This document shows, piece by piece, positions 12,695-33,561 of a stretch of 64,000 nt of DNA. The stretch is from the NCBI GenBank assembly GCA_965197645.1, contig OZ240219.1, positions 800,001 through 864,000 of the forward strand, written 5' to 3'. The number at the start of each line of letters is the position of its first letter. Positions within the stretch are counted from its first letter, which is position 1. The stretch is from Dehalococcoidia bacterium. GTDB taxonomy: Bacteria; Chloroflexota; Dehalococcoidia; Plut-88900. The notes beneath the pieces are model-generated. The model searched no databases and was not told the DNA's origin. It saw only the letters and a list, made by a program, of their open reading frames with translations. Position numbers and translations under genes: made by a program.

Positions 12695-12705
12695 GGAGGA
12701 AGCTG

Positions 12706-13049: not shown

Positions 13050-13052
13050 TTC

Positions 13053-16461: not shown

Positions 16462-16656
16462 AATGGCTTACCTTCCTTCTCGGGTCGCACTGCCGACTTG
16501 ACTCCGCCGGACAACCGCCCTTCACACCACTATCGGAGAATGACTGTCGCCGGGTGGTACCCTCGCCCAGCCACCTCGGAGGTGGCCCCTGGGGGCGTAG
16601 GACGGCGCTGAGACAGACCTCTCGGAGCGCCGAAGTGTCGCGCAACGGGTAGGCGT

Positions 16657-16692
16657 TTGAAGTGTTCCTGCCTCTACAAGGTCTACGAGGCC
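16657..16692. repeat. 36-bp direct repeat, copy 2
   Basis: TTGAAGtGTTCCTGCCTCTACAAGGTCTacGAGGCC. Confidence 0.85.
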
Positions 16693-16699
16693 ATAGCGT

Positions 16700-17689
16700 C
16701 TACTTGAACGCGGGCAGGACCTCTTCGCCAAACCGCTGCGCCTGCTCCATCATCTCCTCGAACCTGTCCACCATGACGTTGGTCAAGACGCAGTGGGTCA
16801 CTCCCTGCTCCTCCAGCGTTTTGATCTTGTTCACCACCTCGTCAGGGGTCCCCACCAGCATCTTGGGGATGAAAGCGTCGGGGGCCCTCTTTGCGAACCG
16901 CTTGCCCATCCACGTCTCCCGTGCCCTTTCCACCGCCTCCTCGTGGGTGTTAGCCAGGTACAGGTTCGTAGAGTACTGCCTATCGATCTCCGATATATCC
17001 CGGCCCGCCTTCTCCAGGTGAGGCAGCAGCGGCTCCACCGCCTCCCACGCCGAGTCCTTCACGTAGTAAGGCACTATCGACATCCCCGCCCCGTACTTGG
17101 CGATCCTTGGATACGTCTCCGGGGCGTGTCCCGAAACGTAGATGGGGAGGGGGTTCTGGACCGGCTTGGGGTGTATCTCGATGTCGTGGAACTCGTGGAA
17201 CTCCCCCTCGAAGCTCACCTTCCCCTCGCTGGTGAGCAACCGGTACAACGCCTCCATGGTCTCGTCGAGGATCTTGCCCCGGTGGGCCTTTCTCTGCTTG
17301 GTCCGTACCGCGGTAAACTCCTCGCGATAGGTGCCCAGCCCCCAACCGAACAGGAATCGGCCCTTGCTGAACTGGTCCAGAGTCGCCGCCTGCTTTGCCA
17401 GCACCACCGGGTCCCGGAAGGGCAGCAGCAGCACCCCGGTAGCCACCAGTATCCGCTCCGTTGCCCCCGCCAGGTAGGCCAGGGTGATCATCGCCTCCAG
17501 CCAGGTGGGCTTTTCCGAGTCCGGCAAACCCATCTGCGGTACGGGGGCCATGAAGTCGGTGGCCCACACCGAATCGAAACCGACCTTCTCCGCCAGCTGC
17601 GTGAGCCTGACCACGTCATCCGCCTCTGCGAAGGGTACCGGGTAGAAGACCCCTTCACGGCTGTTGGGTATGCCTATTCCAAATCTCAC
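16700..17689 (-). CDS. LLM class (luciferase-like, probably F420-dependent) oxidoreductase
   Basis: GFDSVW, LPFRDPVVLAKQAATLD..S.GR, PKPVQNPLPIY. Confidence 0.92.
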   Translation of the reverse strand: MRFGIGIPNSREGVFYPVPFAEADDVVRLTQLAEKVGFDSVWATDFMAPVPQMGLPDSEKPTWLEAMITLAYLAGATERILVATGVLLLPFRDPVVLAKQAATLDQFSKGRFLFGWGLGTYREEFTAVRTKQRKAHRGKILDETMEALYRLLTSEGKVSFEGEFHEFHDIEIHPKPVQNPLPIYVSGHAPETYPRIAKYGAGMSIVPYYVKDSAWEAVEPLLPHLEKAGRDISEIDRQYSTNLYLANTHEEAVERARETWMGKRFAKRAPDAFIPKMLVGTPDEVVNKIKTLEEQGVTHCVLTNVMVDRFEEMMEQAQRFGEEVLPAFK

Positions 17690-17831
17690 GGCTGACCTCC
17701 CCGCCCCACTTTCATTATTGAGAGCAGGCGCCTACTTGTTACAATGATACTCCGATCGTTGGCAACTCGTTTCCAGGGAAGGACAGCGCGCCCATCAAAC
17801 CTCGATACCCATCCCCCCACCCCGATTAGCA

Positions 17832-19139
17832 ATGCCACAGAACAGTCCAGCCTCCATCGCCCGCCCGCCCCGAGCCCCCTGGTACAGCCGGGTTCGAGCC
17901 TTTCGATCCCTGGAGCATCGAAACTGGCGCAAGCTCTGGATAGGCAGCCTGTTCTGGCACCTGCCCTTTTGGATGGACCACATCATCCTCGGGTGGGTGG
18001 TACTGTTGCGGACCGACTCTCCCGTCCTGGTCGCACTGGTAGGCGCGTTCCGGCTGCTGCCCATGGGCACGATAGGGTTGTTTGCCGGCGTCCAAGCCGA
18101 TAGATGGCCGAGAAAGCCGCTTCTCATCGGTGCGCAATCCGCCAACCTCGTTCTGTCGTCCATCATGGCCGTTACCCTCTACCTCGACGTCCTCGACCTG
18201 TGGCATATCTACCTGGGCGCGTTTCTGATCGGCGGCGCCTGGGCCACCGACTTCCCGGTGCGGCATTCCCTGATCAGAGACGTGGTCCCGGAGCATTCCG
18301 TGGTCAACGCCATGGCGCTGAACGCCGCCTCGATGATGGGTTCGGCGATGGTGGGGAGGTGGCTGGCGGGATCGATAACCGACGTGGCCGGTCCGGGCGC
18401 GGCCTACGGCTTCATCGCCCTGTCCCTCCTGGTGGGCCTATCGATAGTCATCCGTGTTCCCGTCTCGCCTCGTGAAAGCCCGGAGAGTCGCCCACAGCGG
18501 ATGGGGAGAGGAATTCTCGAGGGCCTGGGCTACGCTTGGCGGAACGCCGCCATCCGAGGCGTGATGATAGTGACCGTCGCCGCCAACTTCTTGATCTTCC
18601 CCGCTACCCAGCTTCATCCCGTTTTCGCTCGGGACGTTTTCGGGGTGGGCGCAACCGGGCTGGGTTTCATGAGCGGCATGGACGGTCTGGGCTCTCTTGT
18701 CGGTGCGATGAGCATAGCAATGGTCGCCGGTGATCGCCATCGGGGGCACGTACTTCTAATCGGATCGATGGTCCTGGGAACAGGAGTACTGCTGTTCAGC
18801 TTCGCTCCTTCCTATGGCCTGGCCCTACCACCGCTGCTTCTGTCCGGTCTCGGCTCGGCGGGTTTCGCCACGATGCAGACCGCCATCCCAGCCACGGCGG
18901 CCGCACCCGCAATGCGAGGTCGGGCCATGGGGGCCGTAGCGCTCGCTATCGGCGTTCTTCCCCTGGGAATGGTCTACATGGGCTCCCTTGCCGAGTGGCT
19001 GGGAGCGCCCAGGGCGGTCACCTACAGCTGCATAGCCTTTTTTCTCTTGATATTGCTCACCGCCGCTTCACAACCGGGTCTTCGCAAGGTAGCCCAGCAT
19101 GAAAAGGAGTCCTCACGATGCCAGAACCGTACGAGTTGA
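17832..19139 (+). CDS. MFS transporter
   Basis: ~12 hydrophobic segments, GVQADRWPRK, MRGRAMG. Confidence 0.92.
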   Translation: MPQNSPASIARPPRAPWYSRVRAFRSLEHRNWRKLWIGSLFWHLPFWMDHIILGWVVLLRTDSPVLVALVGAFRLLPMGTIGLFAGVQADRWPRKPLLIGAQSANLVLSSIMAVTLYLDVLDLWHIYLGAFLIGGAWATDFPVRHSLIRDVVPEHSVVNAMALNAASMMGSAMVGRWLAGSITDVAGPGAAYGFIALSLLVGLSIVIRVPVSPRESPESRPQRMGRGILEGLGYAWRNAAIRGVMIVTVAANFLIFPATQLHPVFARDVFGVGATGLGFMSGMDGLGSLVGAMSIAMVAGDRHRGHVLLIGSMVLGTGVLLFSFAPSYGLALPPLLLSGLGSAGFATMQTAIPATAAAPAMRGRAMGAVALAIGVLPLGMVYMGSLAEWLGAPRAVTYSCIAFFLLILLTAASQPGLRKVAQHEKESSRCQNRTS

Positions 19140-20473
19140 CCGTGACCGAAGCCACCCGGCGCATCCGCCGCGGCGAACTCTCTCCAACGGGGCTGGCGGA
19201 ATCTGTCCTAGATAGAATCGATTCCCTGGACCCGGAGCTCAAGGCATGGGTGTTCGTGGACCGGGATGCGGTGCTGGCCGATGCGGAACAAAAGTCGGCG
19301 AAGCCGGGCCGAGGTACAGACCTCGGTGTCCTCCACGGCGTGCCCATGGGAATCAAAGACATCTTCTACACGGAAGGAGTTCCTACAACGGCCTGCTCCA
19401 AGCTCTACGCCGACTTCGTTCCAGACCACGATGCCACCGCCGTGTCTCTGCTTAAGCAGGCCGGGGCCATCGTTCTGGGCAAGACCGTCACCTGTGAATT
19501 TGCCGGCGCCGATCCGTCGCCTACGTTGAACCCCTGGAACCCAGCCCACACGCCTGGAGGTTCCAGCAGCGGCTCGGCCGTAGCCGTGGCTGCCGGCATG
19601 TGCCCTGCCGCCCTGGGTTCACAGACCGTCGGTTCGGTGCTGCGACCTGCGTCCTACAACGGGGTTGTCGGCTTCAAGCCGACCTATGGACGGGTGAGCC
19701 GGTACGGGGTGATCCCTTTGAGCTGGTCTCTGGACCACGTAGGTTGGATGACCCGCAGCGTCGAGGACGCAGCCCTCCTTCTGCAGGTCCTGTCCAGGCC
19801 GGACCCCCGCGAGCCGGTTACCTTGGGGCAACCGTCCTCGGATTACATGGTGGGACTGGATGAACCGACGCCCCCGCGTATCGGTCTCGTCCGGCCCTTC
19901 TTCTACGACCATGCCGATGACGAGACGAGGCGGCACACTGACCAGATGGCGGAGCGATTGAGCCGGGCGGGAGCAGCAGTCGAGGAGGTGTCCCTGCCCG
20001 CCAGCCTCGACGCCGAGGTCGATGACCAGGAGGTGATCATGGAGGTGGAGGCCACGGCCTTTCACCAGCAGATGTTCGCTGACCGGGGGGACGAGTACCA
20101 ACCCGGTATGCGTGAGATGCTCCAGCGGGGGCTGGATGCAGATGCCCTGAGCTACTCTCGGGCGATGGAACGCCACCGGCAGTTCACCGCGGCAATGCAT
20201 AGCTTCGCCGGCACAGTAGACGTGCTGATGACCCCCTCCACTCCGGCGCCGGCTCCGGCCGACCTGACAAGCACCGGCAACCCCCTGTTTCAGGGGCCGT
20301 GGACATCAAGCGGGTTGCCGGCCATCACGATTCCCTCCGGCTTGTCGGCTGCCGGGCTTCCTTTCGGCATTCAGCTGGCCGCCGCCCCCTTCGCCGAGTC
20401 CCGTCTGCTGGAGGCGGCAGCCTGGTGCGAGACGGTAACTGACGTCCAGCTGAACCCGATGGCCCCTAGATAG
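19118..20473 (+). CDS. Amidase signature family protein
   Basis: GIKD, TPGGSSSGSA, GSQTVGSVLRPA. Confidence 0.94.
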   Translation: MPEPYELTVTEATRRIRRGELSPTGLAESVLDRIDSLDPELKAWVFVDRDAVLADAEQKSAKPGRGTDLGVLHGVPMGIKDIFYTEGVPTTACSKLYADFVPDHDATAVSLLKQAGAIVLGKTVTCEFAGADPSPTLNPWNPAHTPGGSSSGSAVAVAAGMCPAALGSQTVGSVLRPASYNGVVGFKPTYGRVSRYGVIPLSWSLDHVGWMTRSVEDAALLLQVLSRPDPREPVTLGQPSSDYMVGLDEPTPPRIGLVRPFFYDHADDETRRHTDQMAERLSRAGAAVEEVSLPASLDAEVDDQEVIMEVEATAFHQQMFADRGDEYQPGMREMLQRGLDADALSYSRAMERHRQFTAAMHSFAGTVDVLMTPSTPAPAPADLTSTGNPLFQGPWTSSGLPAITIPSGLSAAGLPFGIQLAAAPFAESRLLEAAAWCETVTDVQLNPMAPR

Positions 20474-20574
20474 CCCCTCGATTTGGTATAGTTGGGCACC
20501 TGGCAAGCGTTCGAAGGGAGTGTCAACGAACGGAAGGATGCTTTCATGTAGCTTGTCCCAGAACCTCGTATTGA

Positions 20575-20665
20575 GGGAGTCCAGAGGGAAACTTCCCTCT
20601 GGCAGGGGGTATGGGAGATGTGCCCCCAGCTACAAAAACGTCCGAGGGCGGGTGGTTGGGACAAA
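20575..20665 (+). repeat. Family B interspersed repeat
   Basis: GGGAGTCCAGAGGGAAACTTCCCTCTGGCAGGGGGTATGGGAGATGTGCCCCC..GGGCGGGTGGTTGGGA. Confidence 0.85.
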
Positions 20666-20797
20666 GACATCTCTCCATTTGAGACAAGCTAACATATGGC
20701 CTCGGTAGGCGGGAAAAGAGAGCCAGAGCAACGCACGGGGTGTGTGGCAGTCCGAAGGGGAACGATCAGGGCTGTACAGGAAGGGTAAGGAGAAGCG

Positions 20798-22363
20798 ATG
20801 AGTAAAGAACACGATATCCTAATCATCGGAGGCGGGCACAACGGCCTGGTATCGGCGGCATATCTCGCCGAAGAGGGCCTGGACGTCCTGGTCCTGGAAC
20901 GAAGGGACATAGTCGGTGGCGCATGCGTTACCGAGGAGCTTATTCCGGGCTTCAAATTCTCCACGGCTTCCATGATCTGCGGCCTTCTCCAGCCCAAGGT
21001 GATCGAAGAGCTGCAGCTCCGAGACCACGGCCTCGATATCTACGCCCCCGATCCCAGCAACACCGTTGTTCTCCCCGGTGGCCGGCATCTGTGCGCATGG
21101 CTGGACCAGGCTAAGACGGTGGCGGAGATAGAGCAGTACTCTAAGCAGGACGCCAAGGCGTTCGTAGAGGTGACGAGATTTCTTCAAAAGTACCAGAGCT
21201 ACATAACGCCTCTCTGGCTGCGCAACCCTCCAACGATGGCGGAGATGGCAGCCCGTTTTGAGACCCCTGAAGACCAGGAGGCCTTTCGCACCATCTTCAT
21301 GGGCAGCGTCGATCAGTACGCGAACAGCAATTTCGAGTCCGATGCCGTCAAGGTGATGATGACCACCCTAGCCGCCACCGGTCACAACATGAGCCTCGAT
21401 AACAAGGGGAATATGTACAAGATGTTCTGGGCCAACATGGCTGAGGCCACGGGTGACCTGGGAGTGTGGGGCCTGGTGCGAGGAGGCATGGGTGGCATTA
21501 CCCAGGCGCTGGCTCGCTCGGCCAAGTCCCGGGGCGCAGACATCCGCACCGGCGCCGAGATAGACCACATCCGGGTAGAGGACGGCCGGGCCGTGGGCGT
21601 GGCCTTGACCACCGGCGAGGAGCTGCGAGCTAAGGCCTTAGCCTCCAACGCCGATGCCAAGCGGACCTTTCTGAACCTCTTGGCGCCTGAGCACCTGCCG
21701 GAGGACTTTGTCGGGCGGGTGGAGGACATACCCCAGAAGGGTCACTTCGCCAAGCTGTTCCTCGCTCTCGATGACAGGCCCGAGTGGGACTGCTTCCAGG
21801 GCGAAGATCCCGGCACCCGGGACAACGGGTTCATGCTGTTCGTACGGTCGCTGGAGCATATCGAAATGACCCGCCGGGAGGCGACGGAGGGCCGCCTGCC
21901 GGAGGAGCCATGGTTCGGCCTTCACATTCAATCCCTTACCGACCCATCGATGGCGCCGCCCGGACAGCACGGCGCCACGGTCTACGTTCAGTACGCCCCC
22001 TTCGATCTGGCGGAGGGCACCTGGGATGAGGTGGGAGACGACTTCGCCAAGCGCTGCATCGATACCCTGGCCAGCTACAGCCCCAACCTGAAGGACATTC
22101 TGCTGGACTACGTGTTCTTCAGCCCCAGGGACATCGAGAGCCGGTTCTACCTCACCGAGGGAACCATGCATCACGGCCACATGTTCGCCGACCAGATGTT
22201 CTCCCACCGACCCCTGGTTGGTTGGTCCGAGTACCGCACCCCCGTCCGAAACCTCTACCTCTGCGGTTCCGGCGCTCATCCGGGAGGAGGGGTTACGGGT
22301 GCGCCGGGGCACAACGCCGCCCAGGCGATTATTCAAGACTGGCGCGAAGGCGTGATCGAGTGA
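20798..22363 (+). CDS. Phytoene desaturase-family FAD-dependent oxidoreductase (PYROXD2-like)
   Basis: IIGGGHNGLV, GGACVTEE, GGMG, LYLCGSGAHPGGGVTGAPGHNAA. Confidence 0.92.
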   Translation: MSKEHDILIIGGGHNGLVSAAYLAEEGLDVLVLERRDIVGGACVTEELIPGFKFSTASMICGLLQPKVIEELQLRDHGLDIYAPDPSNTVVLPGGRHLCAWLDQAKTVAEIEQYSKQDAKAFVEVTRFLQKYQSYITPLWLRNPPTMAEMAARFETPEDQEAFRTIFMGSVDQYANSNFESDAVKVMMTTLAATGHNMSLDNKGNMYKMFWANMAEATGDLGVWGLVRGGMGGITQALARSAKSRGADIRTGAEIDHIRVEDGRAVGVALTTGEELRAKALASNADAKRTFLNLLAPEHLPEDFVGRVEDIPQKGHFAKLFLALDDRPEWDCFQGEDPGTRDNGFMLFVRSLEHIEMTRREATEGRLPEEPWFGLHIQSLTDPSMAPPGQHGATVYVQYAPFDLAEGTWDEVGDDFAKRCIDTLASYSPNLKDILLDYVFFSPRDIESRFYLTEGTMHHGHMFADQMFSHRPLVGWSEYRTPVRNLYLCGSGAHPGGGVTGAPGHNAAQAIIQDWREGVIE

Positions 22364-22392
22364 GAGGGAATCGTTAGATCGAGGAGTATGAG

Positions 22393-23412
22393 ATGAAGGT
22401 CGGTTTACTGTATGACCTGCGCAATCCACCCCAGTGGTACAGACCCTTCCCGGACCTGTACGCCGAAACGCTCGAGCACATCGTTGCCGTGGAGGCCCTG
22501 GGCTTCGATGCCGTCATGTTCACGGAGCATCATTTCGATCCCGACGGCTATCTGCCCTCCCTGTTGCCCATGATGGCGGCCGCAGCAGCCAGGACCAGTT
22601 TGGTCACCATCGGGACCGATGTGTTTCTCGCGCCCTTCGTTCACCCCGTCCGATTCGCAGAGGACTGTGCGGTGGTGGACATCCTCTCCAACGGTCGGCT
22701 CCTCCTCCAGGCGGGGGAGGCCTATCGGCCCCAGGAGTTCGAGGCCCTGGGAGTTGAGAAGACGCATCGTGGAAGCCTGACGGAAGAGACCCTGGACATC
22801 ATCCGGCGTTGCTGGACGGAAGACACCTTCGACTACGAAGGGCGTCATTACCGGCTCAAGGGGGTGCACGTTTCGCCGAAGCCGGTCCAGCAGCCCCATC
22901 CACCCCTCTACTTTACAGCCGACACCGGCAGGCCGTTGGAGCGAGCGGTGCGCATGGGTTTCCATGCCGCTACAGCCCACGGCGTGACCAGCGGGCCGGA
23001 CCCCTCCGAGTGGAAGCGCTGGCATGATGGGTGGACGGACAAGCTGAGGGAGTTCGGACGGGACCCTCGGGAGTTCAAGTGCAGCACTATCCTGAACCTC
23101 TTCGCCGCCGAGGACCCGGAGAAGGCGTGGGAGGAACACAAGGAGGGAATACTGCACGTGTTGAACTCCTACAGCGTGGAAGGCGGAGACTCTACGCCGC
23201 CATTGGAAACACCCGAGGCGATCCCCAACTGGCGTAAGATTTTCCAGACCCCCAGCGACTGCGTAAAGTATATAAACGAGGTGTACGGGTCGGCGCCCCC
23301 CGATTACGTGCTGCTATGGGGTACGAGGCCCGGGATGTCCTACAACAAGAGCCTGGAGTACCATCGACTATTTGCCCAGCAGGTGCTCCCTGGCATTCGG
23401 GGTCCAACCTAG
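22393..23412 (+). CDS. LLM class flavin-dependent oxidoreductase
   Basis: EHHF..DGYLPS, HPVRFAED..VDILSNGR, PKPVQQPHPP. Confidence 0.92.
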   Translation: MKVGLLYDLRNPPQWYRPFPDLYAETLEHIVAVEALGFDAVMFTEHHFDPDGYLPSLLPMMAAAAARTSLVTIGTDVFLAPFVHPVRFAEDCAVVDILSNGRLLLQAGEAYRPQEFEALGVEKTHRGSLTEETLDIIRRCWTEDTFDYEGRHYRLKGVHVSPKPVQQPHPPLYFTADTGRPLERAVRMGFHAATAHGVTSGPDPSEWKRWHDGWTDKLREFGRDPREFKCSTILNLFAAEDPEKAWEEHKEGILHVLNSYSVEGGDSTPPLETPEAIPNWRKIFQTPSDCVKYINEVYGSAPPDYVLLWGTRPGMSYNKSLEYHRLFAQQVLPGIRGPT

Positions 23413-23502
23413 CAGGAGACGGCCTCAAGGGACCGGGTCGACGGGCCGACGCCGGCAGATGGATTACGGACTTTAAAGTTAAAGCATCAGCAGGAGGAGC
23501 TT

Positions 23503-23862
23503 ATGAAGGTCTTCAACATCGATGATGTCCAAAAAGAGGACGCTAGCGCGCCTATCTTCACCGGGGGGAGCGTAACCATGCAACGCCTGCTGGTGGCGGG
23601 GGACTCGGAGGACTTCGCCGTAGGGCTGGTCAACTTCAGCCCCGGGGCCAGGACCAAGCTCCACATTCACGAATCCGATCAGATAGTCTTCGCCACCGCC
23701 GGTCGGGGCACCTACGCCACCGAGCATGAGGAGAATGAGGCTGTCGCCGGCACCATGGTCCTCTTCCCCAAAGGTGAGCGACACTGGCATGGGGCCACCC
23801 CCGACTCCTCCTTTTCACAGATCTCCTTCCTCCTGCCGGGTGAAACTACCGTCGTGGAGTAG
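23503..23862 (+). CDS. Cupin domain protein
   Basis: FSPGARTKLHIHESDQ, FPKGERHWHGA. Confidence 0.9.
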   Translation: MKVFNIDDVQKEDASAPIFTGGSVTMQRLLVAGDSEDFAVGLVNFSPGARTKLHIHESDQIVFATAGRGTYATEHEENEAVAGTMVLFPKGERHWHGATPDSSFSQISFLLPGETTVVE

Positions 23863-23946
23863 GTCGGCGCCCACGACGTCTATGACCGGGTCTAAAATAA
23901 AGTCTTAACGTCTGTGCCGGGCCTGATTACAGGGAGGAGACGACCA

Positions 23947-24471
23947 ATCGCAACCAACAATGTTCCCATAACCAACTCTTACTGGGTTGCCCACGGGCAG
24001 CTGCTGGCTGGGGGATATCCGGGTGGACTCGATGGAAAGGACATGGACCGGGAAGTTCGAGCCATAGTGGAAGCGGGAGTAAGGGTCTTTGTCGATCTGA
24101 CCCAGGAGGCCGAACAGCCTCCCTATTCTCCGACCCTCTCCGATATCGGCCGGCAGCTGGAAACGCCCGTTCAGCACCTTAGAGTGCCTGTCAAAGACCT
24201 GGGGATACCGACCGCCTCGGAGATGGACGGTATCTTGAGGGTCATCGATGAGTCGGTGCGAGACGACAAGCCGGTATACGTCCACTGCGTGGGTGGTATA
24301 GGCAGGACGGGCACCGTGGTCGGGTGCTATATGGTCGAGCAGGGAATGACCGGCTCGGAAGCGCTGCAGGAAATAGAGGCTCTCCGCAAGCCCACCCCCT
24401 ACAGCCGGGTAAACTCCCCGGACAACCCCGGCCAACGTGAAATGGTCCTCTCTTGGAGCGGGCGCGGATAG
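23947..24471 (+). CDS. Dual-specificity/tyrosine protein phosphatase family (possible ATC start)
   Basis: HCVGGIGRTG (CX5R), SYWV, LLAGGYP; SD GGGAGGAG precedes ATC 23947; alternative GTG at 23914. Confidence 0.85.
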   Translation: MATNNVPITNSYWVAHGQLLAGGYPGGLDGKDMDREVRAIVEAGVRVFVDLTQEAEQPPYSPTLSDIGRQLETPVQHLRVPVKDLGIPTASEMDGILRVIDESVRDDKPVYVHCVGGIGRTGTVVGCYMVEQGMTGSEALQEIEALRKPTPYSRVNSPDNPGQREMVLSWSGRG

Positions 24472-24660
24472 CCGATAGGCGGCCAAGATGCAAGCGCTAG
24501 CAACAAGACCCGCCGAACGCAAGACTACCCATCCCCTTGCCGTCCTCACCCCTCTCAGCTATTTTTATAATACCCGGATGTCCAAACGGTCGCTGGAACA
24601 ATGCAATCAAAAACAAGCACCTCCAGCCACAAAACAATCAGACCCGATAAGAGGTAAGCC

Positions 24661-25746
24661 TTGACATCGTCACCGGACTCCCGTTTTGAGCTTCCCGATA
24701 CAGTCGAGGCCATCGAGTTCTACTACGAACAGGGCCTCACCGATGGCCTTCCAGTAATACCTCCCACCGAGGAACGGGTGCTTCAGTTCCTGGAAGCCGC
24801 AGGGGTGGAGCCGACCGAGGTGATAGGCACCCGGCCCAGCCGCAACTGGATCGTAACTGCCGATAAGGTTGCCATTAACGCCATCATGGCCGGCTGCCTC
24901 CCGGAGTATGCCCCTGTTGTCGTAGCCTCCATCAGAGCTCTACTGCGCCCCGAGTTCAACGCCTCAGCCATTTCCGAGACTGCCGGCACCTCCGCGCCAA
25001 TGATCATGGTCAACGGGCCCATTCGCCACGAGCTCGATATCAACTCCGGTTGGAACCTGTTCGGGCCTGGCTGGAGAGCCAACGCCACTATCGGCCGCGC
25101 CCTCCGGTTGGTCCTCATCAACGTCTGCAACGAGGTGCCGGGGGTGAGGGACAAGTCCACCTTCGGCCAAGCCGGACGCTACACCTCCTGCATCGCTGAA
25201 AACGAGGAGGCCAGTCCCTGGCAGCCCTATCACGTCGAGAAAGGCTTCCCGATAGAGTCCAACACTACAGGCCTCTTCGCCGTGTTTCCTCCCATGGAGA
25301 TCTACAATCAGTCGGACAACCAGCCGGAGCAGATCCTGGAGAGCCTGTGCCATATCATAGCCGCCGACGACAATTGCCAAGGCGAACTGGTTCTTATCCT
25401 CAGCCCTGAGCATGCCCAGACCATAGCCTCTGCAGGGTGGAGCAAAGACCAGGTAAAGGAATATATGGTTGGGAGGATCACCGACTTGTACCCCAAACTG
25501 TCGATCCAGGCCGAAAAGGTCGGCCCGGCCGCCGCGCGGTTCGGCAGTACCCCAACAGAAGCAAGAGACACAGGAGGCAGACGTAGCTCGGGTGATAGCG
25601 GCCCGGTTGTCCCAATCCGTGCCGAGGGTATCATCCTTCTGGTGGCTGGCGGCGAAGGTGGTGGCCACTCCTCAATTCTTCCTACATGGGGCAGATCAGC
25701 GATAGCCCACTCCGTCATCGAGCCCATTACGATTGCACCAAGGTGA
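24661..25746 (+). CDS. Uncharacterised partner protein of UGSC selenoprotein (copy 2)
   Basis: TDGLPVIPPT, AINAIMAGCLPEY, NATIGRA, STFGQAGRY, SPWQPYHVEKG; TTG start after GAGGT. Confidence 0.85.
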   Translation: MTSSPDSRFELPDTVEAIEFYYEQGLTDGLPVIPPTEERVLQFLEAAGVEPTEVIGTRPSRNWIVTADKVAINAIMAGCLPEYAPVVVASIRALLRPEFNASAISETAGTSAPMIMVNGPIRHELDINSGWNLFGPGWRANATIGRALRLVLINVCNEVPGVRDKSTFGQAGRYTSCIAENEEASPWQPYHVEKGFPIESNTTGLFAVFPPMEIYNQSDNQPEQILESLCHIIAADDNCQGELVLILSPEHAQTIASAGWSKDQVKEYMVGRITDLYPKLSIQAEKVGPAAARFGSTPTEARDTGGRRSSGDSGPVVPIRAEGIILLVAGGEGGGHSSILPTWGRSAIAHSVIEPITIAPR

Positions 25747-25796
25747 TGTAACCTGCCCGCTGGACCGTTACGGTTCTCACACCCAATTGCTCAACT

Positions 25797-25805
25797 TGGT
25801 ATAAT
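25797..25805 (+). promoter_or_regulatory. Extended -10 promoter candidate
   Basis: TGgTATAAT upstream of 25853. Confidence 0.5.
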
Positions 25806-25852
25806 CCGTCTAGTGACGAGCTATTTCGGGTAGCGGGTCAAGGAGGCGAAAG

Positions 25853-26983
25853 ATGAAGAACGGATTCAAGATCATAGACGGCGACGGCCACATGCAAGAG
25901 CCCATGGATATATGGGAGAACTTCACGGAGCCCGCCTTCAAAGATAGGATCCCCAAGGTTATCGGGCACGTGGGCAAGACGGAGTTTCAATACGGTCCCT
26001 GCGAGATCTTTCCAGAGGGCCAAGCGACCGCCTTCACCCAGGAGGTCTACGAGGACGTGGAAGAGCGCTACGGCGAAGCGTACCGTAGCTGGTGGAGCCT
26101 GCCCAGCCGCCTGGACCACATGGACGACGAAGGTGTGGACGTCCAGGTCTGCTTCCCCACCAACGGAGCCCTGGCCACGGGCAACTCCGTCAAGGACATC
26201 GATCTGCAGTCGGCCCTGGTGCGAGCCTACAACAACTGGGCCATCGATTTCTGCCGGGACTCCTCGGGCAGGGTACTCTTCGTGGCGCTGGCAAGTCCGG
26301 GTGGCGGTGAAGAGGCCCTGCGAGAGGTGAAGCGCGTCGCCTCCAATCCGGCGGTGGCGGCGGTGACCCTGGCGGGGTTCATAGACCTGTCGGAAGGCCA
26401 GAAGTGGTGTGATGAGAAGTTCGAGGGCCTATGGCAGCTGCTGGAGAGCGAGGGCCTGCCCGCCGCCTTCCATGGCGGAGGCTCCCAGCGTTCCCTCTTT
26501 GGCCAGTACCAGGGAGAGATGGCTACGGTAGCCCACGCCATCTCCTTCCCCGTGGACCTGATGTTGTCCCTGGCCGACCTGATCTTCGGCGACGTGCTGG
26601 AGCGCTATCCCAACCTGCGGTGCGGGTTCTACGAGGCCAACGCCGGGTGGGTGCCCTACTGGCTGGCCCGCCTGGACGACCACGGCACCGGCAGACAGGC
26701 CCGCTTTATGCACGGAGCCTCGGTATCGATGAAGCCCAGCGACTACTTCTACCGTCAGTGCTCGGTATCATGCGACGCCGATGAGGGCACGCTGCCCCTG
26801 GTGGTAGACTATCTGGAGGGTAGTAACATAATCTTCAACACGGACTACCCCCACCCGGACGCTCCCTTCCCGGGTGCGGTGGACGAGCTGCTGGAGCGGC
26901 CTATCCCCGAGGATGCAAAGCGAAAGATCCTGTGGGACAACTCGGTGGACCTGTACAGGGACCGGATACAGGTCAGTGTTTGA
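25853..26983 (+). CDS. Amidohydrolase family 2 protein
   Basis: IIDGDGH, FH, EAN.GW, NTDYPHPD. Confidence 0.92.
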   Translation: MKNGFKIIDGDGHMQEPMDIWENFTEPAFKDRIPKVIGHVGKTEFQYGPCEIFPEGQATAFTQEVYEDVEERYGEAYRSWWSLPSRLDHMDDEGVDVQVCFPTNGALATGNSVKDIDLQSALVRAYNNWAIDFCRDSSGRVLFVALASPGGGEEALREVKRVASNPAVAAVTLAGFIDLSEGQKWCDEKFEGLWQLLESEGLPAAFHGGGSQRSLFGQYQGEMATVAHAISFPVDLMLSLADLIFGDVLERYPNLRCGFYEANAGWVPYWLARLDDHGTGRQARFMHGASVSMKPSDYFYRQCSVSCDADEGTLPLVVDYLEGSNIIFNTDYPHPDAPFPGAVDELLERPIPEDAKRKILWDNSVDLYRDRIQVSV

Positions 26984-27103
26984 ACAGTGTTCTGGCAGCG
27001 TTTAAACGGCGTTCCGGCGAGCTGTAGAAGCCTACAGGCATAAAAGAGGTTAGAACGCAGCGGAAAGCCGTGAACGGCCCGGCGGATGCCGGTAAGCACC
27101 GTC

Positions 27104-27112
27104 TGTTATAAT
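27104..27112 (+). promoter_or_regulatory. Extended -10 promoter candidate for UGSC copy 2
   Basis: TGtTATAAT ~40 nt upstream of ATG 27152. Confidence 0.5.
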
Positions 27113-27151
27113 CTGAAGTCGATAGGAATGGCAATTTGATAGGAGGGTGGT

Positions 27152-27703
27152 ATGACTACAGGCTCTCTCAACAAGCTGATAGCCCTGGACCCCAGGGGTG
27201 ATACCGGCCCAGCCGAGTCGATCTCCATGGCCCCCAGGCCCGACTCGCTGGACGGAAAGCGCATCGGCCTGCTCCACGATCAGCGGCTCAACGGCGACAA
27301 TCTTCTGTGGATGGTCACCGACCTGATCAAAGAGCAGTACGAGACCGGTGAGGTCAACTTCTGGGCCAGGCCCAACATATCGGACATCTCCCCACCGGAC
27401 CTCATGGCGGAGATGGCCGCCAAGGCTGACGTGAGCTTGATAGCGATCGGGGACTGAGGGTCCTGCAGCACGTGCTGTATGCACGACGCACTCACCCTCG
27501 AAGACATGGGCGTCCCCACTGCGGTAATCATAAGCGACCAGTTCTTACCGGGCGTTCAGGAGATATCCAAGTCTCGCGGCGCCCCTGATTACCCCTACGT
27601 GGTGGTCAAGCACCCCATCGGCAGCCTTGACGAGGATACCTTGAAGGAACGGGCCAGGGACGCCCTGCCCCAGGTGTTGAACATCCTTCTCAACGGCAAG
27701 TAG
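27152..27703 (+). CDS. UGSC-motif selenoprotein (183 aa, Sec102)
   Basis: AIGD-TGA(27455-27457)-GSCSTCCMHD..EDMGVP..VKHPIG; halves in frame; paralog of 11616. Confidence 0.9.
27471..27485 (+). promoter_or_regulatory. SECIS-like hairpin (UGSC copy 2)
   Basis: CGTGC-TGTAT-GCACG starting 14 nt after the UGA. Confidence 0.6.
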
Positions 27704-27776
27704 CCCTAACCTGTCGCACCGCGGTCCCCGGTATTTTGGGGAGGGAAATCGGATTCAGCTAGTCTGCTGTTTCGAG

Positions 27777-27808
27777 AGCTGGTGAATTTCACGTGAAATT
27801 CACCAGCT
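27777..27808. repeat. Perfect 32-bp palindrome upstream of argJ
   Basis: AGCTGGTGAATTTCAC-GTGAAATTCACCAGCT followed by TTT. Confidence 0.9.
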
Positions 27809-27904
27809 TTTCCTTCCCTGTCGCTGAATGGGAACCACCGAGCAAAAAATGCTATACTCCACGATGTTCTACGAGGGGGATCCGTTCCTGAATCGTTCCA
27901 TGCT

Positions 27905-29125
27905 ATGAGTCCCAATCCGTCCTCCATTCCAGGCGGCACCATCACCAGCCCGCAAGGCTTCAAGGCCGGAGGCGTCTACTGCGGCGTCAAGCCCTACGGC
28001 GAAGACAAGATGGACCTGGGCCTACTCTATTCCGAAACGATGGCCAGCGCCGCCGCGGTCTTCACCAAGAACAGGGTCACCGCCCCCGGTGTCCTGGTCT
28101 CTCGTGAACACATCGCCGATGGGAGTGCGCAGGCGGTCGTGGTGAACAGCGGCATAGCCAACGTGGCCGTCGGGTTCCACGGTCGAGAAGACGCCGAATC
28201 CATGACTCGGCTTGCCGCAGAGAAGCTTGGGCTGGACCCAGCGAACGTACTGGTAGCTAGCACCGGCGTCATCGGCGTCGAGCTGCCCATGGCCCGTATC
28301 CGCTCCGGCATCGAGGAGGTCCAGGTGACCGAGGATGGAGGTCACGACCTGGCTCGAGCTATCCTGACCACCGATAGCCACACCAAGGAGATTGCCGTCT
28401 CCATCGATCTGTCCGGCGGGGAGACGATAACCATCGGGGGAATATCCAAGGGCGCCGGTATGATTCACCCGGACATGGCCACCATGCTCAGCTTTCTGAC
28501 CACCGACGCCGCCGTCGACCCGGCGTTCCTTCAGAGCTCCCTCAGCGCTGCCACTGAAGTCTCCTACAACATGATCAGCGTGGACGGCGATACCAGCACC
28601 AGCGATACCGTAGCCATCTTGGCCAATGGGATGGCCGGCAACGACGCGATAATGGCCTCTTCGCCCGATGGGCCGGCCTTCCAAGAGGCCTTGACCCACG
28701 TCTGTACCTACCTGGCCAAACAGGTAGCCGCCGACGGCGAGGGCGCCACCAAGCTCATTGGGATCACCATCGAGAAGGCCAAGAAGCTGGAGGATGCCAG
28801 GCAAGCCGCCCGGGTAATATCCACGTCCAACCTGGTGAAAACGGCGATCCACGGCAACGATCCCAACTGGGGCCGGCTCATGGCAGCCCTGGGACGCACG
28901 GGCGTGGACATCGTGGAGACCAAAGTCGATCTCTTCATCAACGATATCTTCCTCCTCAACGATGGCGTCCCCGTACCCTTCTACCCGGACGCCGTCTCTC
29001 AGTCCCTGGACCAGAAAGAGGTCAACATCCGCATCGTTCTGAACCTGGGCGAAGCGTCGGCCACCGCCTGGACCTGCGATATGTCCGAGGAATACGTACG
29101 TTTCAACAGCGAGTACACCACCTGA
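27905..29125 (+). CDS. argJ: Bifunctional ornithine acetyltransferase/N-acetylglutamate synthase
   Basis: STGVIG, KGAGMIHPDMATML, DGDTSTSD, DGEGATK, DPNWGR. Confidence 0.97.
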   Translation: MSPNPSSIPGGTITSPQGFKAGGVYCGVKPYGEDKMDLGLLYSETMASAAAVFTKNRVTAPGVLVSREHIADGSAQAVVVNSGIANVAVGFHGREDAESMTRLAAEKLGLDPANVLVASTGVIGVELPMARIRSGIEEVQVTEDGGHDLARAILTTDSHTKEIAVSIDLSGGETITIGGISKGAGMIHPDMATMLSFLTTDAAVDPAFLQSSLSAATEVSYNMISVDGDTSTSDTVAILANGMAGNDAIMASSPDGPAFQEALTHVCTYLAKQVAADGEGATKLIGITIEKAKKLEDARQAARVISTSNLVKTAIHGNDPNWGRLMAALGRTGVDIVETKVDLFINDIFLLNDGVPVPFYPDAVSQSLDQKEVNIRIVLNLGEASATAWTCDMSEEYVRFNSEYTT

Positions 29126-29913
29126 TGGCCGAGAGACCCATCGTCGCCAAGATAGGGGCGGGGGTGCTGGGGGCGGGAGACACCCTCTTTGCCGATCTGG
29201 CCTCGCTGCAGAAGCAGGGCGTGCACACCGTCCTGGTGCACGGGGGCGGAGCCCTCATCTCCAAGTGGCAGGAGAACCTGGAGATCGAAACCACGTTCGT
29301 GCGGGGCCTGAGGGTGACCGATGGTCCCAGCCTGGAGGTGGCCACCGCCGTCCTCGCTGGGTTGGTGAACAAGGTGTTGGTCTCCTGCCTGCAGGGCGAG
29401 GGCGCCAAGGCAGTAGGACTCAGTGGCGTCGACGGGGGTATCCTGCAGGCCGACGTCCTGGACCCCGAGCTGGGGTTCGTCGGCAAGATCAAGCGGGTTG
29501 ACGTCAGCTCCTTGAGTGCACTGATGAAAGAGGGATTCCTGCCCGTAATAGCGCCGCTGGCCCTGCAGACCGGCCCCGGCGAAAGGGCCTTGGGGGGCAT
29601 ACTGAACATTAACGCCGATACTGCGGCCGCGGAGGTCGGCGCCGCTCTGAATGCTTGCCGCCTGATCTATCTGACCGACGTGCCGGGCGTCCGGGACGCG
29701 GCCCAAAACACCATAGCCAGACTATCCCGGGAGCAGGCCACGGAGCTGGTGGAGACCGGGGTGATATCCCAAGGCATGATCCCCAAGGTCGAGGCCTGCC
29801 TGGGTGCGGCGGGAGCCTCGGTCGATTCCTGGATTGTGGACGGCCGCCAACCCCACGCTCTGCTGGAGGCCCTGTCCGGAAACGGCGTCGGCACACGGTT
29901 CGGAGCCGCCTGA
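29125..29913 (+). CDS. argB: Acetylglutamate kinase
   Basis: VHGGG, GLRVTD, NINADTAA, GMIPK. Confidence 0.95.
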   Translation: MAERPIVAKIGAGVLGAGDTLFADLASLQKQGVHTVLVHGGGALISKWQENLEIETTFVRGLRVTDGPSLEVATAVLAGLVNKVLVSCLQGEGAKAVGLSGVDGGILQADVLDPELGFVGKIKRVDVSSLSALMKEGFLPVIAPLALQTGPGERALGGILNINADTAAAEVGAALNACRLIYLTDVPGVRDAAQNTIARLSREQATELVETGVISQGMIPKVEACLGAAGASVDSWIVDGRQPHALLEALSGNGVGTRFGAA

Positions 29914-29916
29914 CCC

Positions 29917-31086
29917 ATGTCCCTCGAGAACGCGATCGTCGATGTGGACAGCCACGTCTGGGAGCGGCTCGACCTGATAGAGGAGCATCTCGAGCCTGAG
30001 TACAGGGGCCTCGCTCCCAGAATAGAGACCGACGAGCGGGGCCTGGAGTACATGCTGGTCGAGGGCCGTAAGCCGCTGAACATCCTCCTCAGGGAGGGCC
30101 GGTTCGGTCGCATGTCGGCGGGAGAGTCTATCGAGGCCAAGCGGGACAAGTATCTGAAACCGGGCGCCGTAACCTACGAGGAAGGCCTTGAGCTCGCCCC
30201 CGCCTCCCACGACCCCCACGAGCGGATCAAGCTCATGGACGATGAGAAGGTCGACGTTTCCTTCCTCTACCCGACCCTCTGGCTCCACCTGGAATCCGAG
30301 TGCCGCAAGCCTGAGATGGCCGCCGTCTACGTTCGGGCCTACAACAACTATCTGATGGACTTCTGCGGCCACTACCCGGAGCGGCTAACCCCGGTGGCCC
30401 ACGTCTCGGTGATGGACGTGGAGGAGGGCATCAGCGAGTTGCATCGCGTAGCTGATATGGGAGTCAAGGCCGCCATGCTTTCCGGGTACCCCCTGAGCGG
30501 ACGCTCCTACGGTGATCCCTACTTCGACCCCTTCTGGGAAGCCGCCCAGGAGATTGGCCTCCCTATCACCTTTCACGTAGTGGGCAATCTCCACCCCTTC
30601 AGCAACCCCTATTTCGAAAACACGTCGCTGAACAGGTTGGCCGAATCGGACCTGTGGTTCTACATACTGCTGGAGGCGCCCGGCGTCCACTTGGGGCTGG
30701 CGAGCCTTCTGGCCGGTGGCGTCTTCGATCGCTTCCCCGGACTGAAGATCGTCCTGCTGGAGACCGGCTGTAGCTGGATGCTCTACTGGTTCGACCGGGC
30801 CGATCACATAATGGACGCCTATCCCGGCACCACCATGATGAAATCCTATCCCAGCGAGTATATGAAGACCAACATCTGGACATCCATGGACCCGGACGAG
30901 GACCTGGCGCCGGTGGTCGTGGACCGGTTTGGAGCGGAGAGGTTTATGTGGGGCGCCGACTACCCTCATTCCGAGGGCCAGACCGGAGCGGTGGAAAGCC
31001 TCAAGCAAAGCCTGAGCAATCTTCCCGAAGATGCTCGCAGGAAGATAATCGGTGAAAACGCTATCAGGCTGTACGGCCTGAGCTGA
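29917..31086 (+). CDS. Amidohydrolase family 2 protein within the arg cluster
   Basis: VDVDSH, FH, LETGCSW, GADYPHSE. Confidence 0.9.
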   Translation: MSLENAIVDVDSHVWERLDLIEEHLEPEYRGLAPRIETDERGLEYMLVEGRKPLNILLREGRFGRMSAGESIEAKRDKYLKPGAVTYEEGLELAPASHDPHERIKLMDDEKVDVSFLYPTLWLHLESECRKPEMAAVYVRAYNNYLMDFCGHYPERLTPVAHVSVMDVEEGISELHRVADMGVKAAMLSGYPLSGRSYGDPYFDPFWEAAQEIGLPITFHVVGNLHPFSNPYFENTSLNRLAESDLWFYILLEAPGVHLGLASLLAGGVFDRFPGLKIVLLETGCSWMLYWFDRADHIMDAYPGTTMMKSYPSEYMKTNIWTSMDPDEDLAPVVVDRFGAERFMWGADYPHSEGQTGAVESLKQSLSNLPEDARRKIIGENAIRLYGLS

Positions 31087-31101
31087 CGGAGGAGCGGGTA
31101 C

Positions 31102-32295
31102 ATGCCGAACTGGCAGGAGCTGGAAAGCGAATACTTCATGAAGACCGGGCGGCGTCAGCCCATCACCCTGGTGCGAGGCGAAGGCCTCAGGGTGTGGGAC
31201 GAAGATGGCAAAGAGTACCTGGACTTCGTCGCAGGCATAGCCGTCACCGGGCTGGGGCACTGTCATCCGGCCATCGTCAGCGCCATCGAGGAGCAGAGCC
31301 GCACCCTGTGGCACGTGTCCAACCTCTACTACACCACCCCGCAGGTGGAGTTGGCCCGGCTCCTCGTCGAGAACAGCTGCATGGACGAGGTCTACTTCCA
31401 GAATAGCGGCACCGAAGCCAACGAGGCGGCAATCAAGCTAGCCCGAAAGTACGGCCGGGTCCACCTCAACGGCGCCTACGAAGTGATCTCGACGATGGAC
31501 TCTTTCCACGGGCGCACCTTCGCCATGGTGGCTGCAACCGGCCAACCCGATCATCAGAACACCTATACGCCGCTTCCCCAGGGCTTCGTGAACGTACCCT
31601 ACAACGACATAGAGGCGATCATGGCGGCCACCAGCCAGGACACCTGCGCCGTGATGCTCGAACCGATCCAGGGCGAGGGTGGGGTCAACGTCCCATCCCC
31701 CGAGTATCTCCAGCAGGTAAGGAAGTGGTGTGATGACAGAGGCCTGCTGCTGATCTTCGATGAGGTACAGACCGGCATCGGGCGTACGGGCAATCTGTTC
31801 GCCTATCAACATTTCGGCGTCGAGCCCGACGTGATGACCCTCGCCAAGGCCCTGGGAGGGGGCATACCCATTGGGGCGATCATGGCGAAGAAGTCCGCTT
31901 CCGCCTTTGAGCCCGGCGACCACGGATCGACCTTCAGCGGCAACCCACTGGCCACTGGCGTGGCATTTGCCAATATGCGGTACATCCTGGAAAACGATGT
32001 GGTGGGGAACGCCAGGCGAGTGGGGGAACGGCTGAAGAACCAGCTCGAAGGCCTGGTGGAGAAGCACGATATGGCAACGGAGGTGCGGGGCATGGGGCTT
32101 CTCTTGGCCCTCGCCCTGAGCAGGGACGCGGCGGTCTCGATAGTCAACGAATGCCGGGACAACGGCCTCTTGGTGAACCCGGTGCGGCCCAACGCTGTGC
32201 GCTTGATGCCTCCTCTGATAGTCACCGACGCCGACGTGGACCAGGCGATATCCATCCTCGATGCTGCGCTGGACAAGGTGGCAAAGGAAGCCTGA
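31102..32295 (+). CDS. argD: Acetylornithine aminotransferase
   Basis: NSGTEANE, SFHGRT, EPIQGEGG, DEVQTG, AKALGGG. Confidence 0.96.
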   Translation: MPNWQELESEYFMKTGRRQPITLVRGEGLRVWDEDGKEYLDFVAGIAVTGLGHCHPAIVSAIEEQSRTLWHVSNLYYTTPQVELARLLVENSCMDEVYFQNSGTEANEAAIKLARKYGRVHLNGAYEVISTMDSFHGRTFAMVAATGQPDHQNTYTPLPQGFVNVPYNDIEAIMAATSQDTCAVMLEPIQGEGGVNVPSPEYLQQVRKWCDDRGLLLIFDEVQTGIGRTGNLFAYQHFGVEPDVMTLAKALGGGIPIGAIMAKKSASAFEPGDHGSTFSGNPLATGVAFANMRYILENDVVGNARRVGERLKNQLEGLVEKHDMATEVRGMGLLLALALSRDAAVSIVNECRDNGLLVNPVRPNAVRLMPPLIVTDADVDQAISILDAALDKVAKEA

Positions 32296-32319
32296 TTCAT
32301 CACCGGAGGGGAACAACTA

Positions 32320-33561
32320 GTGGCTGAAAAAGCGGTACTGGCTTACAGCGGCGGGCTGGATACATCGGTGGCCATAAAGTGGCTCAATGATGCGTACGGC
32401 GTCGACGTCGTCACCCTGTCCATCGACGTGGGAGGTGATATCGACTACGACGGCGTCAAGGAAAAAGCCCTGAACAGCGGCGCCATTGACGCCCGTGTCA
32501 TAGACGCCCGAGACCTCTTCGTGCGCTATTTCGTCTTTCCGGCCCTGCAGGCCAACGCCATGTACGAAGGCAAGTACCCTCTGGCTACCGCCCTGGCCAG
32601 GCCGCTGATGGCCAAGCTGCTGGTGGACGTGGCCCACGAGGTCGACGCCAATGCCGTGGCCCACGGTTGTACCGGCAAGGGCAACGACCAGGTGCGGTTC
32701 GACGTTAGCGTAGGCGCCTTGGACCCTGAGCTGAGGATCATCGCCCCGGCTCGTGAGTGGGGCATGACCCGAGAGCAGGAGATAGAGTACGCCATCGAGC
32801 ACGGCATTCCCGTGCCGGTGACGAAAGAGAGCTCCTACTCCACCGACGAGAACCTGTGGGGCCGCAGCATAGAATCGGGAGTGCTGGAGGACCCCTGGGT
32901 CGAGCCGCCGGAAGAGGTATACCTGTGGACCACCGCCCCCGCCAACGCGCCCGACGAACCTCGCTACATCGAGGTCGGCTTCGAACAGGGCATTCCGGTA
33001 CGCCTCGACGGAGTAGAGATGGACGGGCTGGCCTTGGTCCAGGAGATACACCGGATCGGCGGAGAGCACGGGGTGGGTCGGATCGATCACCTGGAGAACC
33101 GGCTGGTGGGGATCAAGTCCAGGGAGATCTACGAGGCCCCCGCCGCGGTTGTGCTGACGGCCGCTCATCGAGCGCTGGAAGACATGACACTGACCAAGGA
33201 GCAGATGCGCTTCAAGGAAAGGGTAACCCAGGAGTACGCCGACCTGGTCTACAACGGGCTGTGGTTCACGACGTTGCACCAAGACCTGGCCGCCTACGTG
33301 CAGAGCACCCAGCGACACGTCACCGGCGTCATACGGGTTAGGCTTCACAAGGGCCAGGCCGAGGTGGTGGGCAGAAAGGCCGATAGGGCCCTCTACAGGA
33401 TGGAGCTTGCCACCTACGAGAAAGGCGATATGTTCGATCAGAGCGCGTCACCGGGCTTCATCCACATTTGGGGTCTTCCAGTGAGGGTCCAGGCCCGAGA
33501 GCAGCTATTGGACCAGCCCGAAGGCCCATTGGGAATCACCGGACCACTGTCTAGCGATTAG
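32320..33561 (+). CDS. argG: Argininosuccinate synthase
   Basis: AYSGGLDTS, HGCTGKGNDQVRF, GIKSREIYEAP. Confidence 0.98.
   Translation: MAEKAVLAYSGGLDTSVAIKWLNDAYGVDVVTLSIDVGGDIDYDGVKEKALNSGAIDARVIDARDLFVRYFVFPALQANAMYEGKYPLATALARPLMAKLLVDVAHEVDANAVAHGCTGKGNDQVRFDVSVGALDPELRIIAPAREWGMTREQEIEYAIEHGIPVPVTKESSYSTDENLWGRSIESGVLEDPWVEPPEEVYLWTTAPANAPDEPRYIEVGFEQGIPVRLDGVEMDGLALVQEIHRIGGEHGVGRIDHLENRLVGIKSREIYEAPAAVVLTAAHRALEDMTLTKEQMRFKERVTQEYADLVYNGLWFTTLHQDLAAYVQSTQRHVTGVIRVRLHKGQAEVVGRKADRALYRMELATYEKGDMFDQSASPGFIHIWGLPVRVQAREQLLDQPEGPLGITGPLSSD

Follow-up and report, generated by a model that had tools for sequence, protein, structure and literature searches.

The genes at positions 24661-27703 of a 64,000-nucleotide stretch from a Dehalococcoidia bacterium (GenBank contig OZ240219.1, positions 800,001 to 864,000; the whole stretch is called the window here) were found to encode a selenoprotein of the UGSC family and a partner protein of about 350 residues. 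With moderate confidence, this unit is taken to be one of four copies of a two-component selenoenzyme in the source genome, in which UGSC would form a redox relay with a cysteine site of the partner. The partner open reading frame (ORF) lay at 24661-25746 (361 residues, with a TTG start and an AAGAGG box 6-11 nucleotides upstream of the TTG), and the UGSC ORF at 27152-27703 (183 residues through one TGA read-through, with a GGAGGG box upstream of the ATG). The gene between them, at 25853-26983, encoded a 376-residue hydrolase of the Amidohydro_2 family (PF04909, E-value 2.7e-22). All three genes were on the plus strand.

A first module was found in the same window, with a partner at 10538-11578 (plus strand, 346 residues) and a UGSC gene at 11616-12164 (plus strand, 182 residues), and it had no gene between the two. 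The starts of the two partners were 14.1 kb apart. Compared with each other, the two modules were 43% identical in UGSC and 44% identical in the partner. Selenocysteine (Sec) was residue 102 of both UGSC proteins, in GD-U-GSCSTCC in the second module and in GD-U-GSCSQCS in the first. The result was in agreement with the earlier note on this DNA, which had claimed that the module recurs about 14 kb away with Sec again at residue 102. The motifs that it had quoted as differing between the paralogs were all found in the translations, with HGTSASTAG and SAISETAGT as the two forms of partner residues 102-110, and LLDNSKNNA and LLHDQRLNG as those of UGSC residues 40-48.

Judged from gene content and order, the conserved unit is the pair and not the trio. 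The source genome contained four UGSC and seven partner copies, and one relative up to 12 and 14, respectively. Four of the seven partners were adjacent to or fused with UGSC, and three were alone. Among 41 related genomes, the matches of UGSC and of the partner fell in an identical set of 20, the partner match in one of them (G015) being a fragment of just 46 residues where a contig ends. The two genes were linked in these relatives, with a partner within 5 kb and always on the same strand for 64 of the 69 UGSC matches and at 300 bp or less for 49. The remaining matches were four without a partner on their own short contig and one far from a partner. Furthermore, a scan across phyla with one genome per species gave at least 615 partner loci, which belonged to Chloroflexota, Methylomirabilota, Poribacteria, Binatia, Acidobacteriota, Proteobacteria, Actinomycetota and one haloarchaeon. 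The best 80 of these loci were examined for UGSC and for neighbouring genes. A UGSC domain was present at 63 of the 80, and 65 of the 70 domains were at 300 bp or less and on the partner's strand. The earlier note had proposed an expanded, substrate-diversified family. The expansion is borne out by the copy counts, but the diversification of substrates is not, and what points to it is the variable catabolic neighbourhoods.

The pair was also found as a single protein. One source-genome copy (G000:C1:2251577-2253284, minus strand) carried UGSC and then the partner in a single frame with the motif GDUGSCTSW, and encoded about 510 residues from its likely ATG in an open frame of 599 residues. With this copy included, 8 of the 43 pairs examined were fused. 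In addition, 52 representatives of the partner family with at least 407 residues were surveyed. Seven were complete UGSC-partner fusions, some with Cys for Sec and two lacking both redox residues. Another 24 started inside UGSC just after Sec, and represent UGSC-partner fusions that the gene caller had truncated at the UGA. Three ended inside a C-terminal UGSC (partner-UGSC), and 16 had no named extra domain. The remaining two carried an N-terminal AhpC/Redoxin CxxC domain instead of UGSC. Because a thioredoxin-fold redoxin can thus replace UGSC in fusions, UGSC may act as the reductant-carrying subunit, and this is the strongest hint of such a role. Moreover, one of the 24 cut fusions (P0258, 549 residues) consisted of the C-terminal half of UGSC, the partner, and a ferredoxin:thioredoxin reductase catalytic chain (FeThRed_B, PF02943, residues 467-546).

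Co-divergence of the two proteins was measured on the 43 adjacent or fused pairs, using patristic distances from FastTree trees in which several long branches were flagged. The UGSC and partner distances were correlated with r = 0.835. This value was reached by none of 2000 full permutations (maximum 0.26) and by none of 2000 permutations within genomes (mean 0.25, maximum 0.60). Paired copies have thus diverged together.

The partner had no Pfam or NCBIfam family match in the library scans, and its family comprised 4945 clusters at 50% identity (E-value of 1e-3 or less). It carried the family blocks DGLPxxPPT and NAxMAGCxPEY over a length of about 350 residues (the GLTDGLPxxPPT...MAGC family). 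The near-invariant residues were D28-G-L-P, P34-P-T, N73, C79, R139, N141, R146, C177, E180 and W187, with C79 in MAGC and C177 in xCIAE. The AlphaFold2 model of the partner was confident, with a predicted local distance difference test (pLDDT) value of 90.1 and a predicted template modelling score of 0.89. Foldseek and VIA-align gave no convincing solved fold for it. The best Foldseek match was a weak one to class I fumarate hydratase (E-value 4.6e-3, template modelling score 0.25), and the best VIA-align match was also weak (Z 5.4, root-mean-square deviation 5.5, 126 residues aligned). The 30 nearest ESM Atlas clusters shared no common Pfam family. Three proteins of 713-741 residues (P0126, P0127 and P0128) had two or three separate regions matching the partner, and P0126 and P0127 at least resemble fusions of two partners in tandem. 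Two partner genes in tandem upstream of one UGSC were seen in relatives.

The complex was modelled on a natural Cys-type fusion, P0159, which shares 41% identity with the window partner and was divided into two chains, residues 192-528 and residues 1-178. The docking reached an ipSAE of 0.78 (0.78, 0.78 and 0.79 in the runs), and the best of three controls gave 0.00. Of 157 solved complexes, 116 attained a mark of 0.78, and so did 2 of the 215 mismatched pairs. These counts apply only roughly to P0159, because its alignment was assembled from proteins found by searching. The runs shared at least 85% of their contacts, and the pLDDT of the partner chain was 81 or higher. It is unlikely that the docking merely reproduced a known structure, because no like complex has been solved. 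When mapped to the window proteins, the predicted interface comprised on the UGSC side the N-terminal strand 3-20 with the invariant P14, Q44 in LLHDQRLNG, residues 75-80, U102-G-S-C-S-T-C108 and H111. On the partner side, it comprised P34-E38, 57-66, K69, I72, N73, M76, N100, 102-109 and 150-165. M76 is three residues before C79, and residues 102-109 are the SAISETAG / HGTSASTA segment. The model thus supports the docking of partner and UGSC with an interface around the Sec motif. In this model of a homologous fusion, the variable motifs fall on the predicted subunit interface around Sec. They do not lie far from Sec, an outcome that the earlier note had named as refuting it. These motifs may set the pairing of partner and UGSC, rather than or as well as the choice of substrate.

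In the two-component relay, the partner would be the catalytic and substrate-binding subunit, with C79, C177, R139, R146 and E180. UGSC would be a small flavodoxin-like subunit, whose N-terminal strand and U102-x-x-C105 loop are predicted to dock beside the helix ending in partner C79. In turnover, the selenolate of U102 might exchange with the partner cysteine site or attack a species held there. C105 would then resolve the intermediate to give an internal selenenylsulfide, which an external donor of the thioredoxin type or of the ferredoxin:thioredoxin-reductase type would re-reduce. Each UGSC probably serves its own partner, because the paralogous pairs diverged together, interface included.

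Several observations weigh against the relay. For the presumed donor, no thioredoxin reductase over the TIGR01292 cut-off was found in the source genome, which is 94% complete (best 73 versus 343 bits), and two thioredoxin/thioredoxin-reductase motifs occurred in none of the 586 neighbouring ORFs at the 80 loci. No UGSC was near three of the seven source-genome partners or at 17 of the 80 loci elsewhere. Both cysteines were nevertheless kept in the copies without a UGSC neighbour, so that the partner can work when no UGSC is adjacent. Some fused UGSC domains lacked both redox residues (P0167 and P0188). The complex was modelled on the homologue P0159, not on the window's own pair, and the contact residues named for that model include neither C79 nor C177. 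Furthermore, co-divergence of adjacent genes is also expected from plain co-duplication. No biochemistry is in print for either family in the parts of the literature that concern UGSC, and the entries in reviews of 2022 (PMC9312934) and 2026 (PMC13188914) list UGSC as uncharacterised.

The fold of UGSC and its kinship bear on what chemistry the pair performs. The AlphaFold2 model of UGSC (pLDDT 93.6) had five strands with a helix after each, and Sec, in the redox motif U102-G-S-C105, was in the loop that joins strand 94-100 to helix 103-118. The best fold matches were flavodoxin-like and generic (Foldseek E-value 2.3e-4 and up; VIA-align Z of 11.2 or less), and on this model UGSC is flavodoxin-like. 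No thioredoxin was among the best 50 matches listed by either fold search. The thioredoxin-like fold guessed for UGSC in the literature therefore gets no support from the matches listed. Sequence and profile searches of the PDB with UGSC and the partner gave nothing below an E-value of 0.05.

In the family models, the GrdB, PrdB and GrdH models were weakly matched by 6 of 44 UGSC members and the GrdF model by 5. The broader selenoprotein-B-group model was matched by 3, and every other family by one member at most. In hhalign, the UGSC profile aligned with three GrdB-like proteins of the source genome over 95 columns with Sec on Sec (probability 93.1, E-value 3.2e-7), and with a single GrdB-like sequence at a probability of 56.6 (E-value 1.1e-4). 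UGSC is thus a free-standing protein remotely related to the Sec domain that selenoprotein B carries. The likeness was confined to part of the protein. None of the 44 members matched the GRDB domain (PF07355), the whole-protein TIGR01917 score was 21.8 bits at best versus a cut-off of 602.2, and UGSC gave an hhalign probability of 0.7 with a 280-residue PrdB-like selenoprotein of the source genome. The GrdB-like query had no solved relative in the PDB search.

The three GrdB-like genes of the source genome carry Sec in ILT(G/A)T-U-GTG and are at loci L051, L052 and L053 (G000:C1 near 2856093, 256545 and 401324, respectively). A GrdE-like gene (PF09338) precedes the one at L051. These genes suggest glycine/sarcosine/betaine-type reductases in a Dehalococcoidia-like genome. 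The 280-residue PrdB/GrdB-like selenoprotein is encoded between UGSC and partner in the third module (G000:C1:2775824-2776666, plus strand; L054:1426-2268), and it has a PF07355 match at positions 210-341 and U163 in VPA-U-PLDH. The cluster of the third module thus encodes two selenoproteins, because this Sec gene sits beside UGSC.

On this kinship, it is conceivable, albeit rather doubtful, that UGSC and partner form an unrecognised class of selenium-dependent reductases, in which a GrdB-type Sec domain would serve a new enzyme and insulated pairs would act on differing small N- or carboxylate compounds of dissolved organic matter. If so, hydrolases and amidases encoded close by would supply these reactions or clear them. 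Direct attack of Sec on a bound substrate is the chemistry of glycine, betaine and D-proline reductases. A reductive bond cleavage of the GrdB/GrdE type, with the partner activating the substrate and the Sec of UGSC attacking it directly to cleave a C-N or C-X bond, is judged unlikely. It is a pure conjecture that the partner would then be self-processed at G78/C79 by self-cleavage. The homology of the Sec domains, the GrdB(Sec)-like genes and the PrdB-like selenoprotein of the third module would suit such a cleavage. The conserved arginines would suit a carboxylate substrate, and amidases, hydrolases and solute transporters recur nearby. However, the partner showed hhalign probabilities of only 0.1-2.2 with GrdE, GrdB and the PrdB-like protein (0.1 with the GrdE-like protein of the source genome), and it had no PF09338 match. 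In addition, GrdB has no Cys at U+3, whereas the UxxC motif is invariant in UGSC, and the redoxin and FeThRed_B fusions fit a disulfide relay better.

The gene between partner and UGSC raised another alternative, that of a three-subunit enzyme with an integral amidohydrolase, in which the variable motifs would determine the specificity of a substrate-diversified family. The hydrolase gene does separate the two core genes and has their orientation, and the earlier note had described it as sitting between them. Amidohydrolases also occurred at other copies, with a divergently oriented Amidohydro_2 gene adjoining the fused copy and an Amidohydro_1 hydrolase, similar to Xaa-Pro dipeptidases, directly upstream of the first module (9009-10463, plus strand). 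The true start of the latter is probably near 9258, because its family match starts at residue 84-88. Moreover, the neighbourhoods were catabolic and variable, and a G004 orthologue had a 335-residue ORF with GGDH and DSHPD motifs, arginase-like by eye only. The part of the earlier claim that made the hydrolase a component of the module did not hold. No homologue of the middle gene (P0005) was found in the two orthologous modules checked, L017 and L019, and the partner-UGSC gap of L017 holds other ORFs, by eye one arginase-like and one short-chain dehydrogenase-like. No conserved third gene was present among the neighbour clusters of the 80 loci. The most common were NHL/SGL at 10, luciferase-like monooxygenase at 9 and CoA-transferase III at 8 loci, followed by enoyl-CoA hydratase at 7, major facilitator superfamily transporter at 6 and amidase at 6, and an Amidohydro_2-like cluster was found at 2. 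The middle gene was an ordinary member of PF04909 (80.3 bits versus a gathering cut-off of 26.4), and its nearest paralog, 88% identical, was elsewhere in the genome (G000:2803098-2804225). At least 76 Amidohydro_2 paralogs were counted in the 3.2-Mb source genome (tblastn, at least 200 residues aligned), and the proximity of a hydrolase is cheap because of this number. From these comparisons, the middle gene was inserted locally, out of a paralog family of very large size, and is not a conserved component. As the variable motifs also fall on the predicted subunit interface, the three-subunit enzyme is considered very unlikely.

Even less credence is given to a metalloenzyme with a Sec ligand, in which U102 and C105 of UGSC and C79 and C177 of the partner would form a shared metal or Fe-S site. 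Exactly four Cys/Sec residues are conserved, two in each subunit, and the weak structural hits of the partner were to Fe-S hydro-lyases, with L-serine dehydratase also found by VIA-align (Z 4.2, root-mean-square deviation 3.5, 100 residues aligned). However, these matches are below the reliable level. The retention of both cysteines in partner copies without UGSC, the loss of both redox residues from some fused UGSC domains, and the absence of C79 and C177 from the residues named for the modelled interface all speak against a shared site.

The reading of UGA as Sec was well supported from the genes and their homologues. The two window UGSC proteins scored 141.1 and 151.1 bits with NF041046 (cut-off 125) and 180.9 and 195 bits with PF24696 (cut-off 25). 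The in-frame UGA was at 27455-27457 in the second module and at 11919-11921 in the first; the reading frame was open and conserved past the TGA, and the full-length Pfam match crossed it. Exactly one TGA was present in all four UGSC matches of the source genome, and one in 67 of the 69 matches of the related genomes. U or C at the Sec position with Cys at +3 was invariant in 44 aligned UGSC homologues, and among the 70 domains at the best 80 partner loci, 68 had U and two had Cys in its place. The genome encoded SelA (TIGR00474, 547.7 bits), SelB (TIGR00475, 346.8 bits) and SelD (TIGR00476, 379.7 bits), all above their cut-offs, and the SelD gene also had an in-frame TGA.

A hairpin like a selenocysteine insertion sequence (SECIS) followed the UGA, at 27469-27487 (plus strand; 14-32 nucleotides after the U of UGA, with a helix of eight pairs) in the second module and at 11933-11951 in the first. 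It was tested on an ungapped alignment of 45 nucleotides from the UGA in 40 genes, against 500 shuffles and slid controls. In the helix, 77.2% of cells were paired compared with 62.3% in the shuffles, and the covariation score was 0.345 compared with 0.114; neither value was reached by any of the 500 shuffles, and the slid controls gave a covariation score of 0.136 or less. Seven of the eight pairs changed on both sides, and one U in the apical loop (alignment column 24) was nearly invariant. It took the 40 aligned homologues to reveal the hairpin, because single-sequence folding was not significant for the 66 nucleotides after each UGA (z of -1.82 and +0.17). No Rfam match, and hence no curated SECIS family, was found in a scan of 10000-28500 at an E-value of 1 or less. 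The view of the earlier note that UGA in two divergent paralogs argues against pseudogenes is thus confirmed by the conserved TGA, the covarying hairpin and the presence of selA, selB and selD. The opposite view, that the TGA is a true stop, with two short ORFs or a pseudogene in a chance neighbourhood, might draw on gene callers having cut 11 of the 16 homologues found to 100-101 residues and on the Rfam and single-sequence folding results, but it is already refuted by the conserved frame, the spanning Pfam match, the retained TGA with rare Cys replacement, the hairpin and the Sec machinery.

The other genes around the two modules were of mixed kinds. Upstream of the second partner, 19118-24471 on the plus strand held genes for an amidase, a flavin adenine dinucleotide (FAD) amine oxidoreductase, a luciferase-like monooxygenase, a cupin and a dual-specificity phosphatase-like protein. 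Directly after the UGSC gene, an arginine-biosynthesis run occupied 27905-33561, starting with ArgJ and then an amino-acid kinase. The later ORFs of the run were by eye like an aminotransferase and argininosuccinate synthase, and a further Amidohydro_2 gene (29917-31086) was inserted after the amino-acid kinase gene. Downstream of the first module, 12628-13931 held an HTH_3 (antitoxin-like) ORF and an NYN-domain protein on the minus strand.

The UGSC family and its fusion with the partner are already in print since 2007-2008. The name UGSC dates from 2007, when it was given to a selenoprotein without a known function (PMC1976440). In 2008, it was among the most abundant selenoproteins of the Global Ocean Sampling (GOS) data, and the fusion "UGSC/Unknown_1" was noted together with a guess at a thioredoxin-like fold (PMC2398784). 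The passages on UGSC in these two papers and in the reviews PMC9312934 and PMC13188914 assign no function to it. The window itself is a modest gain, namely two more copies, an incidental interposed hydrolase, and paralog-variable motifs that are suggested to lie on the interface. The partner represents a very large uncatalogued family without a clear solved fold. A fixed partner makes UGSC, which has had no assigned function since 2007, open to concrete experiment. The predicted docking at the Sec motif, the link to the GrdB Sec domain and the alternative redoxin fusions of the partner point in the same direction.

Compared with known systems, the two UGSC proteins of the window belong fully to the UGSC family (PF24696, NF041046) by score, U-x-x-C motif, UGA-encoded Sec and length; there is no difference in kind, and the source genome has four copies. 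The partner resembles Unknown_1 of PMC2398784, whose Figure S1A shows an alignment of ocean metagenome reads (AVNGVMAGCRPEYMP...FN.....TT......VNGP) that includes the MAGC block. Partner residues 71-120 (AINAIMAGCLPEYAP...FNASAISETAG...VNGP) are, judged by eye, the same conserved block. The part of that paper on Unknown_1 gives a 60-column block and the fusion, and no family definition, neighbour statistics, structure or function.

With GrdB, GrdF, GrdH and PrdB, UGSC shares a homologous Sec-bearing strand-loop-helix domain, but it lacks the 350-residue GRDB domain, and it has a resolving Cys at U+3 where GrdB has none. As with GrdB and GrdE/PrdA, the Sec subunit is paired with a second, larger protein, although the partner is unrelated to GrdE/PrdA by hhalign and has no PF09338 match. 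Thiol-disulfide relays in which thioredoxin- or peroxiredoxin-fold domains are fused to the enzymes that they reduce offer a further comparison. The pair differs from these in that a thioredoxin fold finds no support in UGSC and the acceptor chemistry is presumptive. The likeness lies in the position of Sec, which follows a strand and begins a helix like redox CxxC motifs, and in the fusion of the partner to either UGSC or an AhpC/Redoxin CxxC domain, and once also to an FeThRed catalytic domain.

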